Assembly (NCBI GenBank): GCA_000165345.1
Contig: CM000433.1
Location: 640,001-704,000, forward strand
Direction of reading: 5' to 3'
DNA length: 64,000 nt
The position numbers and the translations under genes were made by a program. Below are positions 35,327-41,333 of this stretch, one piece after another. The notes under the pieces are model-generated. The model ran no database searches, was not told the origin of the DNA, and saw only the letters and a list, made by a program, of their open reading frames with translations. Positions within the stretch are counted from its first letter, which is position 1; each line of letters starts with the position of its first letter.

Positions 35327-37627
35327 TCATTTTCTACTTTTTTTGATAAATTTGAGAATATTTCCCATGCTTTGATCATCAGTGACATCATTTAAATCAT
35401 TAATATTATGGTTATTGGAGTTTCTTTTGTTCTTGTTTTTTTTTGAAATCTTGGTATTGTTTGAAACATTTTTATAAGATGATGATTCTTCTAGATTATC
35501 AAGAATATCAATTTTTTCGTCAATAATATTACTAAATAGTTTTCTTGTTTTATCAATTTTCTCATTAACATTATTCCAATCATCTTTTTTATTAAAGCTC
35601 TCAATCTTTAGACTTTTAAATATTTTAAAATTCTTGCTCATAAGTACATCCTTTCCACCTCCTTGTTCTTCATTAAGTAATTCTTCAACGATCATTTTTC
35701 TGAAAAGATTATCAGAAGCATAAAACATTGCAATAATAGCATAATTGCATATTCCTGATAGTACTAAATTTAAAAAGTTTCCAAAATAACTTTGAATCCA
35801 TCTTTTCTTAAGAGATTGAGGAATGTTACTAGTAGATGAAACTAATGTTTCAATCATCCTAATTCCAAAAGGAACTTCAAGAATATCTTTAAGCATTATA
35901 TTCTTGTGTTTGCTAATAAAATATGTAATACCAGAAGTTAAGGGATGAATTGTATCTGCTGGAAACTTTGATAAAGAGCTAATCATTAAACATCCTTGAG
36001 AAGTTATTTTCAACTTTTTCTCTGCAGATTCTGTCTCTGACTTAGAGCTATCATTTTCTTTCCCTTCTAATAATAACAATTCACTCTTCTTCTTTTGAAA
36101 TATTAAGCATGAAAATGTGTATTGATAATCTTCACTTGAATCTATTTCTATTGACTTCCATAATTTTTTAGTTAAATATTTGTATTCACTTTGTAATCTT
36201 CTACAATTATCTATTAGAGAAATTAATATATCTAAAAACTCTTTTTTACTTATCATCTTTGAGAAATCTAAACATTTCAATATTGGAATAAATTCCTCAC
36301 GTTTAATTCTATTACTCTTTAAAAGATTTAAAATTATATAATGTCCATATTCTGAATCTAATATATCATTTAAGAATAACTGATCATATTGTTCTTTAGA
36401 GATTGTATGTGAATTAATCCAAATAACTAAGAATTCATATGGAATCACTTCTAATAGTGCTTCTAATAATCTACTCTTTAAATTTGAATTCATCCAATTT
36501 CTAGTTGAATTTGAAAGTAATCTTGAAATCTTTTCAGAATCTACATCTCCATTTTCATATCCAATAATTATATCTTCATCAGTTTCTTGTCCATTTGTTA
36601 TAATAATTGTTAATATTGTATTAAATAATTTTACTAATTCAGCATTTTTTTGTGGATTTAATTCATTCAATGCTCTAATAAACAATATTAAAGATGGTAA
36701 TCCATAAGTATCTCCTATAATACCTTCAAAATCCTCTTTAAGAGATTTTAATAGTTGAGATGATAATGATGTATCATCCATATTTGAAGAAAATACTAAG
36801 TCTTTCAACTCTTTAATACTATTACATTCATATGTTTTATATTTGTTTTGACTCTTTCCACTATACTTTTGTTTATTAGCTTGATTCCTTTTTCCTACAT
36901 TTTCTAATATATAAGTCTCCATATTGTCAATACTCATAGTTACTTTCCCCATAGTAATATTAATAACAGTTCTTCCTACATGACTTGCTGTAGAATTAGT
37001 AAATATTGAAATCCAACCCAAAGTATCTCCCATTTTTCTTACAAATTCCAAAATCTCTTCTAGTATTAAACTTCTTTCTTCATGAAAAATCTTCTTCTGT
37101 TTTAGAAAACTTAACAGTATTGCAGAACTTTCTAATGCTGTCTCTGTTACATGAGATCCATACAAATCAAAAATACTTTGTTCTACATGTTTTAATATAC
37201 TTTTTTGAATAAATATATAATTGGATATACAATTCTTTAATCTTTGAAATGCTTCATTTTCCTCAATCATTTTACTTTTCTCATTCAATATATCAAAGTT
37301 TATTGAATCTATTAATCTCTTGATACTTAATATATTAATACTAAGCATTAATTCAAAAATCTTACTGCATCTTTGATCACTCATTAAAAAGACTTCAACA
37401 TCTTTCTTCCTCATATCCTCAATAATTCTATCAACTAGTACTTCACAGCCTTGTTCATCATTCAATAAATCACCTGTTAATATCATATCTTTGATTTTTT
37501 TATAGTAATTCAGAATTTCCATATAGTAATTCTCATCTTCTTGATTTACTTCAACATTATTAGTGGTTTCCTCTTTTTTATCTTTAGAAGTTTTTTCTTT
37601 ATTAGCTTTTTCTTTTCCCATTTTCAA
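35327..37627 (-). CDS. Hypothetical helical-repeat protein with a Lys-rich N-terminus. Possibly a nucleolar/ribosome-biogenesis factor. No confident family.
   Basis: 766-aa uninterrupted ORF. Lys/Glu-rich start MKMGKEKANKEKTSKDKKEE. Promoter motifs (GGCCCGCC, TACCGG) upstream at ~37870-37925. Confidence 0.5.
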   Translation of the reverse strand: MKMGKEKANKEKTSKDKKEETTNNVEVNQEDENYYMEILNYYKKIKDMILTGDLLNDEQGCEVLVDRIIEDMRKKDVEVFLMSDQRCSKIFELMLSINILSIKRLIDSINFDILNEKSKMIEENEAFQRLKNCISNYIFIQKSILKHVEQSIFDLYGSHVTETALESSAILLSFLKQKKIFHEERSLILEEILEFVRKMGDTLGWISIFTNSTASHVGRTVINITMGKVTMSIDNMETYILENVGKRNQANKQKYSGKSQNKYKTYECNSIKELKDLVFSSNMDDTSLSSQLLKSLKEDFEGIIGDTYGLPSLILFIRALNELNPQKNAELVKLFNTILTIIITNGQETDEDIIIGYENGDVDSEKISRLLSNSTRNWMNSNLKSRLLEALLEVIPYEFLVIWINSHTISKEQYDQLFLNDILDSEYGHYIILNLLKSNRIKREEFIPILKCLDFSKMISKKEFLDILISLIDNCRRLQSEYKYLTKKLWKSIEIDSSEDYQYTFSCLIFQKKKSELLLLEGKENDSSKSETESAEKKLKITSQGCLMISSLSKFPADTIHPLTSGITYFISKHKNIMLKDILEVPFGIRMIETLVSSTSNIPQSLKKRWIQSYFGNFLNLVLSGICNYAIIAMFYASDNLFRKMIVEELLNEEQGGGKDVLMSKNFKIFKSLKIESFNKKDDWNNVNEKIDKTRKLFSNIIDEKIDILDNLEESSSYKNVSNNTKISKKNKNKRNSNNHNINDLNDVTDDQSMGNILKFIKKSRK

Positions 37628-37991
37628 TAATATTTCCTAATAATAAATATTAAATTCTTCAAATAAATTTTAAATTTTTTAAAGTTTAATATAAATAACG
37701 CTAATATTAAGTTGTTGATGATTTATCTATAATTTTATTGATACAATATATTTATTAGGGAAAAAAGCATTTAAGTAGATATACTCAATATTGAACTATC
37801 TCTTTATATCACTTTTAATTTTTTTTTTTAATCTTTTTTTGACATTATCATGAAAAAAAAAATAATTCAAAAGGCCCGCCTTTTAAATTTTATTATTGCT
37901 ATACCGGCATAAGGTACCGAATTAAAAAAAAAAAAAAATGGTAAAGATAAATTAAATAAATTTAAAAATGAAAAAAGAATTATAGAAAAAT

Positions 37992-38978
37992 TTAGTATTT
38001 TCTAAGACCACCCATAAAGTTTCGTGGATCTGGTATATTTCCATTAAATTCAGCATTTGAAAAATCGAATCCTGGATTCTGTTTTACATATATAATATAA
38101 ATATTTTAAATAATATTTATTAATTATTTATTTATTTATTTTGTTTAACTTACCTCTCTTTGGAATCTTTCTAACATCATTTGCTTTTTCATATTTTCCT
38201 GTAATAATTTTTCAATTTAATATGAATAGTTAAATCAATTATTAAGTAGAGAAGGGAAAGATAATTAACTCACAATATCAATGGAATTCAAAGAATTTTC
38301 ATTACTTGCAATTACTGAATTCCAAACAGATCCTTTTCTCATCTTTGATAGTTGTACAATGAGTTCATTGTTTTCTGAATAATTTGGGAAAAAATATGGA
38401 AAATAATAAGGTAATGACAATGGTTTAATATTAATTCAGTTATTTTATATTAAAAACAAAAATTAAAGAAAAGAAATCAAATAAACTTACCAATATACCA
38501 TAATGATTCTGAAGTATCAATTGTATCAAAGAGAGTATCCTAATAAATGTGAATTGAATTAATAGAAAAAAGTTAAAGTTAGGTATTAAAATCATGAAAA
38601 GATATCTTAATGATAATACTTTCTTTATTTTAAACTTTTCAACTTACATCAAAAATATCATAGTTGGTAGATTTATTCTGTATTTTCAGCTTATTACACA
38701 TTATCTTTACAGATAAATCTTCTTTATTCATTTTATTTTTACTATTTATATCTTTCCCTGAATTTAAATATACATTTTCTACTGTAAAATATAGAATAAC
38801 TTCGTCTAAATTTTGCTCCCAAGTATATTTTAATCTTCCTATTATAGAAAGAAAGTGGATAATACGATAAATTTAGGTTTTTGATTAATTTCAGTTTACA
38901 CGTAAAATTGCATGCCAAACATATATAAATTAGCAACTTACCAATATCATCAAAACATGGAGCCCGTATTGATTTCAT
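37992..38978 (-). CDS. NudC-like CS-domain protein, 6 exons on the minus strand: 38942..38978, 38648..38838, 38491..38539, 38272..38372, 38154..38198, 37992..38078. Total 510 nt, 169 aa.
   Basis: Spliced product MKSIRAPCFDDIG RLKYTWEQNLDEVILYFTVEN...SLWYIENNELIVQLSKMRKGSVWNSVIASNENSLNSIDI ENMKKQMMLERFQRE NPGFDFSNAEFNGN... It tracks human NudC YRWTQTLSELDLAVPF...SSWLIEDGKV...WWSRLVSSDPEINTKKI...EILKKFMDQHPEMDFSKAKFN. All introns are GTAAGT/GTGAGT...AG, and the phases close to an integral CDS. Confidence 0.7.
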
Positions 38979-39212
38979 AATTGTATAAAATATAAATCCT
39001 AATTATATACTTTTTTCCTGAATCTTGTTCACAATTTATTAACTATTTAAACTTTCAATAATAAATTAAGCAATGTGGCTGTGCAAATTAATTAAAAAAA
39101 ATAATTTTTTTGTGAGAATGTTTCCCGCCAAAACTTCGGTCATTTACAAAATATATAAGAAAAAATAAATAAGAGAATAAAAAAATATCAACAAAGGAGA
39201 ATATTTGACAGA

Positions 39213-41333
39213 ATGGACGATAGTTCAAAGAAAGTGGACGATATTGAGGTCTTAGATTTATTAAGAAAATCAAGAAATAGAGTATTGAAAGATTCAGATG
39301 AAAAAAATATTGTTGATAATGAAATGGAAAATGAAGATATGGATATAGATGAAGACGAAGAGGAGGAAGAAGAAGAAGAGGAGGAAGAAGATGAAGAAGA
39401 AGAGGAAAAGTTAGAAATGACAAGCGATTCAGATTCTGCGCAAAGTGATGAAAGACCAGAATTTGAACGTGAAGCGGAATTAGCAAAAGAATACGAAGAC
39501 GAAGCTCAGGCTAAAAGAAAGTACGAGCTATTATACAAAAATAAGAGGAGTCCTTCAAATAAGCAGGATTCTGCATTAATGAAATTACGTAATGCAAGAC
39601 AGAGAAAAATTAAAGGAATGAGACTTACACCATCAGAAGATGAAGAAGACAGTGAAGAAGAAGAATATCAGGGTAAAGATTCCGACGAAAATGATAATAC
39701 AGATAGTGAAGACGATGATGGAGATTATTATGGAGAATATGATAGTAGACATCAAAAAACTGATAAAATTAGTAAATCCAAAAGAAAATTAAGACATTCT
39801 GAATCAGATTCTGAAGAATATGATGATGATAATAACAATTATGAACGATTAAAATCAAAAGGACAAAAAAGATCTAGAAGAAATTCCTCTAATATTCAAA
39901 AAAGTAACCTATTTGATGATGATAATCAAAATCAAGAAAGAATGTTAAGAAGATGTGAAAAAGTACTTGAATCAATTAATTTAAAGCTAATGAAGTCTGT
40001 ACATTTAACAAAAGATAGAATAGAGTTCATGTTAGAACATCCAAAGTTTACTGAATATTTATGTGGGAGCTACGTAAAAGTACCAATTATTAATCCATCC
40101 ACAAATAGTGAGATTTTCTTAACATGTGAAGTTTTTGATTCTCATATTAGTGATGAAAATCAATGTGTATTAACTTTACAGAGAGGAGGATCTAAGAAAG
40201 AGTGGGGAATTGAAAGTATTTCAAACAATATATTCACAAATGAAGATTTACTTGAATGGAAAGCAATGATTAAAGAATTCTATTCCAATGATCCTGATTA
40301 TATTTTATCATTACCAAGAATACTACAAAAAAAAGCCAGGGATTTAAATAATTTTCAATATGGAGATGACGATATTGCTCTTATTCTTGAAAGAAAACAA
40401 AAGAAAGCAAGTACCCAATCTTTATCAGGTAAAACCTTAATTGAAACAAGAACTAACTTACAAACGCAAATTAAACAATTAGAAGCTCAGCTTAAAAATA
40501 TTGGATTGGATAATATTGTTAGAAAATCTAAACTTGCTAAAATTGATCAATTACAACAAGAATTAGAGCAAACTATTAATCAAATTGAGAAACTTAAATT
40601 ACAAAAAGAAATGATCCATCCTGATAAATCTCTTAGAATCACATCTTCTAGATATATTGGAGGAGTACAAGGTAAAGGATCTGGTACTATGCCTACATTA
40701 TTTAATAAGTCAAACTTAAGTGAAAATAATATGAATAATGGAATCACTACAGCTTCTAAAACTAACAAAACTTGCAATTCTTTATATAAACTTATTTTTG
40801 ATCCAACATCTCCAAAAAATTATTCTAAAAATAACCTAGGTTCTGGCGCCATTTCCAATAATGACTATAATCATGCAAAATCTCAATTATTTTCATCAAA
40901 TTCTAATCAAAACACAGAAATTCATTTTGGGAGAAGAGAATGTAGACCTTCTGTTATGTGGGAAACAAAGAGAAATAAGCCGAATACAAGACAACCAATA
41001 AATAGTAAAATTGAATCTTCTGATATTCAAGAAATTTCATTAACACCATCTGACCAAAATAACAATAAACCATCTGATTATGTTATTATTCAAGACATTG
41101 AAACATCTAAAAATTTTTCCTTAGAAACAGAAGAAATTATTTCTGATTTTAAAGATTTCTTTTCAAAAATTGACTTGAATCTTATAGTATCAGCCAGAAA
41201 TAACTCTCCTGTTTGTGTTCCTCCTATATATGATAGTTTCTGGAATCCTTCAGAATTCAATGCTATATCAAAAAACAATAAAGATCTCAACTCCGAATTT
41301 CAAGAACTTGTTAAGTTAGTAACAAATCCTTAG
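39213..41333 (+). CDS. RTF1: RTF1-like Paf1-complex subunit (Plus3 domain protein).
   Basis: Poly-Glu acidic N-terminus. The Plus3-domain block LTKDRIEFMLEHPKFTEYLCGSYVKVPI...FLTCEVFD...LLEWKAMIKE parallels Rtf1 [28 protein letters not shown]...EFMKWKEAM. TTTCCCGCCAAAAC motif upstream at 39121. Confidence 0.7.
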   Translation: MDDSSKKVDDIEVLDLLRKSRNRVLKDSDEKNIVDNEMENEDMDIDEDEEEEEEEEEEEDEEEEEKLEMTSDSDSAQSDERPEFEREAELAKEYEDEAQAKRKYELLYKNKRSPSNKQDSALMKLRNARQRKIKGMRLTPSEDEEDSEEEEYQGKDSDENDNTDSEDDDGDYYGEYDSRHQKTDKISKSKRKLRHSESDSEEYDDDNNNYERLKSKGQKRSRRNSSNIQKSNLFDDDNQNQERMLRRCEKVLESINLKLMKSVHLTKDRIEFMLEHPKFTEYLCGSYVKVPIINPSTNSEIFLTCEVFDSHISDENQCVLTLQRGGSKKEWGIESISNNIFTNEDLLEWKAMIKEFYSNDPDYILSLPRILQKKARDLNNFQYGDDDIALILERKQKKASTQSLSGKTLIETRTNLQTQIKQLEAQLKNIGLDNIVRKSKLAKIDQLQQELEQTINQIEKLKLQKEMIHPDKSLRITSSRYIGGVQGKGSGTMPTLFNKSNLSENNMNNGITTASKTNKTCNSLYKLIFDPTSPKNYSKNNLGSGAISNNDYNHAKSQLFSSNSNQNTEIHFGRRECRPSVMWETKRNKPNTRQPINSKIESSDIQEISLTPSDQNNNKPSDYVIIQDIETSKNFSLETEEIISDFKDFFSKIDLNLIVSARNNSPVCVPPIYDSFWNPSEFNAISKNNKDLNSEFQELVKLVTNP

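Follow-up and report, generated by a model that had tools for sequence, protein, structure and literature searches.

A six-exon gene for a short NUDCD2-type CS-domain protein in the intron-poor genome of Cryptosporidium parvum

Long reading frames follow one another closely along this part of Cryptosporidium parvum chromosome 5, and the stretch from 37992 to 38978 raises the question of whether a protein-coding gene in six small exons lies among them and, if so, how its introns came to be there. We analysed the whole surrounding stretch of 64,000 nucleotides (the window; all positions are counted from its first letter). Its GC content is 19–38% in 2-kb windows, and long uninterrupted open reading frames (ORFs) are densely packed; those of at least 150 aa cover ~78% of it, which fits the statement of the original prediction, made from the sequence alone, that most neighbouring genes are intronless. 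For the locus itself, that prediction had proposed a minus-strand gene for a small CS-domain protein of the NudC family, here called the CS gene.

The predicted exons can be joined into one reading frame. We used a chain search script in which the exon lengths were fixed to the six originally predicted (37/191/49/101/45/87 nt), introns were free at 40–199 nt and GT..AG ends were required. Two stop-free chains were returned, of 169 aa and 166 aa, and the 169-aa chain (CDS 510 nt, six minus-strand exons) reproduces every coordinate that had been proposed. The introns were expected to be 70–120 nt long and measure 103/108/116/75/75 nt, all five with GT..AG ends. As anticipated, the donors are GTAAGT (four of five) or GTGAGT (one of five), and the acceptors are TAG or CAG. 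The GC content of the gene is 27% in exons versus 19% in introns. The parts of the gene, in the order of transcription, are as follows.

38942..38978, minus strand: exon 1, 37 nt, with the ATG at 38978-38976 and its end in phase 1; 37–40 nt in six other Cryptosporidium species
38839..38941, minus strand: intron 1, 103 nt, GTAAGT...TAG, phase 1; contains GCATGC at 38910-38915
38648..38838, minus strand: exon 2, 191 nt, coding for the N-terminal two thirds of the CS domain; 179–191 nt in relatives
38540..38647, minus strand: intron 2, 108 nt, GTAAGT...TAG, phase 0
38491..38539, minus strand: exon 3, 49 nt; the same length in 7/7 species
38375..38490, minus strand: intron 3, 116 nt, GTAAGT...CAG, phase 1, inside codon E93 (the codon after WYI)
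38274..38374, minus strand: exon 4, 101 nt, coding for the last CS strands; 98–101 nt in relatives
38199..38273, minus strand: intron 4, 75 nt, GTGAGT...CAG, phase 0
38154..38198, minus strand: exon 5, 45 nt, coding for ENMKKQMMLERFQRE, part of the C-terminal helix; the same length in 7/7 species
38079..38153, minus strand: intron 5, 75 nt, GTAAGT...CAG, phase 0, 8% GC, just before NPGFDFS
37992..38078, minus strand: exon 6, 87 nt including the TAA stop at 37992-37994, coding for the tail NPGFDFSNAEFNGNIPDPRNFMGG, the best-conserved stretch of the family

None of these introns could stay in the message without harm to the reading frame. Retention leads to a premature stop for every one of them, within 3–5 codons for introns 2–5 and at codon 79 for intron 1; thus, all five must come out to join the coding pieces. 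In the mechanism that we propose, five short, AT-rich GT-AG introns would be removed by the spliceosome and the coding pieces joined. It had been claimed that the mechanical ORF list shows only the read-through of exon 1. A 78-aa read-through is indeed listed there (38742..38978), and so are unconnected fragments that hold exon 4 and part of exon 2.

Homology identifies the joined pieces as one protein. Over its whole length, the spliced product can be aligned with homologues from other supergroups of eukaryotes, and it contains one Pfam CS domain (PF04969; 46.6 bits vs a gathering cut-off of 21.3, E = 6.9e-12) at residues 16–103, which covers profile positions 2–78 of 78. When Lagenidium, Plasmodiophora and Scenedesmus homologues were used as tblastn queries, the CS-gene locus was the sole match at E < 0.1 in the 64-kb window, and gaps in those alignments coincide with introns 4 and 5. 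The Pfam score, the end-to-end homology and the single tblastn locus together exclude a chance origin of the spliced ORF. The spliced alignment with family proteins, which had been suggested as a check, was in effect passed by these searches and by the cross-species models described below. We therefore infer, with a probability of about 0.92, that the CS gene is a genuine spliced six-exon gene encoding a 169-aa, single-CS-domain protein of the NUDCD2 branch, its splicing at the RNA level being read from genomic DNA.

The exon–intron structure is conserved across the genus. We compared the orthologous loci of C. meleagridis, Cryptosporidium sp. chipmunk genotype I, C. ryanae, C. serpentis, C. 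canis and C. felis. The six-exon models of the first four translate exactly to deposited proteins, with exon lengths of 37–40/179–191/49/98–101/45/87 nt. For C. canis and C. felis, a rebuilt six-exon path restores full-length homology (165 and 169 aa, respectively); the rebuilt C. felis model has an intron 2 of 229 nt and an exon 6 of 90 nt. All five intron positions are kept in 7/7 species, with intron lengths free at 55–229 nt and exons that differ by multiples of 3 only. Exons match the C. parvum DNA more closely than introns do in C. meleagridis (94 vs 82% identity), chipmunk genotype I (85 vs 69%), C. ryanae (68 vs 52%) and C. serpentis (63 vs 54%), and gapped positions in these four species number 0–27 in exons versus 29–121 in introns. 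Exons 3, 5 and 6 give gap-free alignments in 4/4 comparisons. For exon 2, the 12 pairwise alignment-gap counts are multiples of 3 in 2/4 species compared. The maintenance of frame, lengths and GT..AG ends in seven species, together with the higher conservation of exons than introns, indicates purifying selection on the spliced product.

This pattern leaves next to no room for a decaying pseudogene, or for a locus that expresses nothing but short ORFs without splicing, for example the 78-aa read-through from exon 1. Such a reading could draw on the mechanical ORF list, which has fragments only, and on the original Iowa II product, which is a partial protein of 95 aa. However, the frame, the exon lengths and the GT..AG ends have been kept out to the gastric species C. 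serpentis, and the coding pieces are more conserved than the introns between them, three of the exons without a single gap in four comparisons. Both observations argue strongly for a functional spliced gene.

The six-exon model is correct, yet it is already annotated and is no new discovery. An identical 169-aa protein has been deposited four times for C. parvum (QOY41732.1, KAL5368731.1, WKS77955.1 and WRK32445.1, 'CS domain containing protein'), and the gene is the same as cgd5_3000 on C. parvum chromosome 5, which also carries tags ending in _5g3000 with the prefix CPATCC or CPHLJ (100% identity over 169 residues). Nearly the same protein, again of 169 aa, has been deposited for C. hominis, C. 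tyzzeri and C. ubiquitum. The ab initio find is thus sound, but current C. parvum annotations already contain the gene model at which it arrived.

Other deposited models of the same gene differ. The 2004-era C. parvum Iowa II entry (EAZ51301.1/XP_001388279.1) starts inside intron 3 and misses exons 1–3. The models of C. hominis TU502_2012 (133 aa) and C. felis (112 aa) diverge from the WYIE boundary on and are without the exon-4 peptide, C. hominis PPS96717.1 (189 aa) has a different, non-homologous C-terminus, and the C. canis model (174 aa) runs into intron 4, after which homology is lost. Compared with the conserved six-exon path, the models of C. canis, C. felis, two C. hominis assemblies and C. 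parvum Iowa II look mis-spliced. These five differing models (133, 189, 174, 112 and, as a partial entry, 95 aa), together with the second stop-free chain that runs through an acceptor at 38029, could also be taken as signs that the gene is spliced differently, through that last acceptor, by skipping of exon 4 or by retention of intron 4. We regard this as very unlikely. Each variant loses invariant or nearly invariant family sequence, either the last CS strands or ENPGFDFS.AEF.G..P, and the six-exon path gives full-length homology back in C. canis and C. felis. The 166-aa chain through acceptor 38029 was rejected because the conserved C-terminus is lost; the most conserved tail of the family is swapped for low-complexity sequence. 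Minor alternative isoforms may exist beside the six-exon product.

Gene-model errors of this kind may have entered comparative work. A literature search for cgd5_3000 found no mention in the text of any paper; the gene appears only in the supplement of Isaza et al. 2015 (PMC4637869). There, Tables S4 and S5 count cgd5_3000/CHUDEA5_3000, with an identity of 0.82, as one of the 113 'most divergent' proteins (<90% identical) between C. parvum and C. hominis (PMC4637869). The correctly spliced C. parvum and C. hominis (CHM_5g3000) proteins differ at just 3/169 residues (I43M, D73E and T82K), which makes the published divergence doubtful; it is probably a gene-model artefact, a judgement formed without sight of the CHUDEA5_3000 sequence. 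Micro-exon genes therefore call for caution: the 2004-era Iowa II annotation contained a wrong model of this one, the deposited models of C. canis, C. felis and two C. hominis assemblies are still wrong, and such errors can propagate.

The protein belongs to the NudC family, as originally predicted, and its place there can be refined. In a phmmer search against the PDB, the top sequence match was mouse NUDCD2 (2rh0; E = 8e-12, query residues 73–156), and the match spans the last strands, the C-terminal helix and the ERFQ.ENPGFDFS.AE tail; the NudC entries in the same search had E values of 6e-4 to 3e-2. The C-terminal tail is invariant over 21 homologues. The CS domain begins at residue 16 of 169, without an N-terminal extension, and the position of the start codon is common to homologues from other lineages. 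The protein resembles mouse NUDCD2/NudCL2 in having a single CS domain followed by the helix and the tail in a chain of similar length (157 aa in 2rh0 vs 169 aa). It differs in its low identity (~23% in the structural alignment) and in an extra loop of ~15 residues in the Cryptosporidium protein. Canonical NudC (human 3qor, mouse 1wfi and E. cuniculi 2o30), p23 and Sgt1 share the CS beta-sandwich fold, but their sequence match is weaker (E ~6e-4 and above), their domain architectures are others and, judging from the alignments, they do not carry the NPGFDFS tail in the same form. Ranked by best match and architecture, the CS protein is a short NUDCD2/NudCL2-type member of the NudC family rather than a canonical NudC.

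The predicted structure agrees with a CS fold and bears on the same distinction. The AlphaFold2 model, for which 21 homologues were used, has a mean pLDDT of 77.8 and shows a beta-sandwich with eight predicted strands (core pLDDT ~90) and a helix at residues 123–141. Foldseek against the PDB matched it to the CS domains of NudC, NUDCD2, p23, Sgt1 and Shq1, all with probability 1.00, and placed human NudC 3qor (E ~6e-8) above NUDCD2 2rh0 (E ~6e-6). This order, and the automated label BOB1 on one Scenedesmus homologue, BOB1 being a plant NudC-type name, would favour a reading of the protein as canonical NudC of the parasite, a nuclear-migration factor of the dynein/LIS1 pathway. The sequence evidence points the other way, with E = 8e-12 for NUDCD2 against ~6e-4 for NudC and the NUDCD2-type tail within the match. 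Canonical NudC carries an N-terminal extension, for which 169 aa leaves no room. In the Foldseek alignment, the lower-ranked 2rh0 has an rmsd of 16.7 across 156 columns (~23% identity), which suggests that the helix is placed differently in the model and that the core matches. Overall, we consider a canonical NudC quite unlikely and retain the NUDCD2 type.

The extra loop, ENVYLNSGKDINSKNK, lies between CS strands at about residues 34–48 (window ~38695–38740, in exon 2), with low pLDDT at residues 41–45. Two homologues (one from an ENA contig, one from EukProt) have an insertion at a similar place that aligns with this loop, and the loop is absent from the aligned stramenopile, green-algal and rhizarian homologues. 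Among the listed matches of word-indexed protein searches there were no named apicomplexan homologues from outside Cryptosporidium, which may reflect the sensitivity of those searches.

NudCL2 is an Hsp90 co-chaperone that stabilises clients such as LIS1 in animals. By analogy, the CS protein would most likely act as an Hsp90-associated co-chaperone, and client proteins may be stabilised by its p23-like beta-sandwich together with the conserved helix and tail at the C-terminus, in the way of animal NudCL2.

The gene stands out in its genome by the density of its introns and not by their kind. Introns occur in 10.8% of C. parvum genes, and the genes that have them average 2.6 exons, with a range of 2–10 (Isaza et al. 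2015, PMC4637869). The genome contains 688 introns with a mean length of 99 nt, and genome-wide GC is 32% in exons versus 22% in introns (PMC4637869), a contrast that the gene matches. The five introns described here resemble typical C. parvum introns in size (75–116 nt vs the mean of 99 nt), GC content (19 vs 22%) and GT-AG ends. The gene differs in its exon number, six against the mean of 2.6, which places it in the upper tail and inside the known range. Its density of ~9.8 introns per kb of CDS is ~100-fold higher than the ~0.1 found genome-wide (from 688 introns and 3,865 genes of 1,783 nt).

Of the five introns, three or more were probably inherited from an ancestor and retained. Intron positions were mapped on a protein alignment of orthologues whose gene structures could be exactly rebuilt. 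Introns 2 and 5 coincide in position and phase (phase 0 for both) with introns of Plasmodiophora and Scenedesmus, and intron 3 coincides in position and phase (phase 1) with a Scenedesmus intron. A hypergeometric estimate puts the chance of at least 3/5 coinciding introns at ~6e-6. We read these three as ancestral because position and phase are common to the Plasmodiophora/Scenedesmus orthologues; in principle, parallel insertion at preferred sites could also produce shared positions. For introns 1 and 4, this small set of orthologues offers no match. The orthologues of Chrysophaeum, Nannochloropsis and a ciliate-like ENA contig have no introns and the single intron of Amorphochlora lies at another position, and they thus give no information on introns 1 and 4. 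By our proposal, at least three ancestral introns probably escaped the large-scale intron loss of the lineage, and the CS gene would be a neat case of ancestral introns outlasting loss in an intron-poor parasite. With five introns, intron-poor Cryptosporidium has the most among the sampled orthologues, intron-richer organisms included (Scenedesmus has four and Plasmodiophora three).

Some ~99% of the intron density has otherwise been removed from the genome, and the persistence of these five could have a functional reason. They may have been kept because expression of the gene needs them, through splicing-dependent expression or quality control or through an element in intron 1, and not by chance; we hold this explanation to be doubtful, with a small chance of being right. 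If true, the CS gene would be a compact model for introns that resist loss in reduced genomes. Hosting of a snoRNA or another known structured RNA was rejected as a reason for retention, as an Rfam search of 37600–39300 at E ≤ 1 found no snoRNA or other known structured RNA in the introns.

Intron 1 has some features of its own. It is the best-conserved intron in the comparison with chipmunk genotype I (80% identity vs 58–69% for the others). The GCATGC at 38910-38915 (minus strand), ~30 nt into the intron, is kept in C. parvum, C. meleagridis, chipmunk genotype I and C. canis. GCATGC is the core of BGCATGCAH, a published Cryptosporidium upstream motif (PMC3734150). From its sequence, the copy in intron 1 may be an intronic regulatory element.

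The CS gene lies between two intronless genes, and the gene order Plus-3, CS, NOP9 is the same in 6/6 other Cryptosporidium loci. The neighbours and the motif upstream of the CS gene are as follows.

39213..41333, plus strand: Plus-3 (RTF1-like) gene, intronless, 706 aa; Pfam Plus-3 E = 2.2e-09; divergent from the CS gene
35327..37627, minus strand: NOP9-like PUF gene, intronless, downstream of the CS gene; Pfam PUF_NOP9 E = 5.7e-21
39121..39132, minus strand: E2F-like motif TTTGGCGGGAAA, 151–154 nt upstream of the CS-gene ATG and ~80–90 nt from the Plus-3 ATG

The original prediction had placed a shared bidirectional promoter between the CS gene and RTF1. The divergent arrangement is borne out by a Plus-3 ORF on the plus strand, with 234 nt between the start codons at 38978 and 39213. 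The sequence TTTGGCGGGAAAC at 39133-39121 (minus strand) is an exact match to E2F-like motif 4, TTTGGCGGGAAV (Oberstaller et al. 2013, PMC3734150). An E2F-like site is kept 140–163 nt upstream of the CS ATG in C. meleagridis, chipmunk genotype I, C. canis and C. felis, with the variant TTTGGCGGTAAA in C. ryanae. A bidirectional promoter shared by the CS and Plus-3 genes is a reasonable reading of this divergent region and its conserved motif, and transcription of the CS gene would probably start within the 234-nt region that it has in common with the RTF1-like gene.

E2F-like sites are frequent in the window as a whole. The pattern TTTSSCGCS occurs 12 times against 0.18 expected, at the positions below.

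6133, 6385, 10195, 11942, 23480, 30926, 31216, 35310, 39121, 44434, 52940, 56880: TTTSSCGCS sites

This excess fits a published result: among the putative promoter elements of C. parvum, E2F-like motifs are the most abundant (PMC3734150). Further conserved blocks lie in the upstream region of the CS gene. TCTCACA at 39111-39117 (minus strand), beside the E2F-like site, is kept in five species. Four species have GCACAGCCACAT (block CACAGCCACAT) at 39073-39084 (minus strand); C. ryanae carries the variant CATAGCCACAT and C. felis the variant CATAACCACAT. On the other side of the gene, between the CS stop codon and the NOP9-like gene, a GGCGGG core (AAAAGGCGGGCCTTTT) at 37875-37880 (minus strand) lies ~250 nt upstream of the NOP9 ORF start and, though outside the TTTSSCGCS pattern, may be the NOP9-like gene's own E2F-like element.
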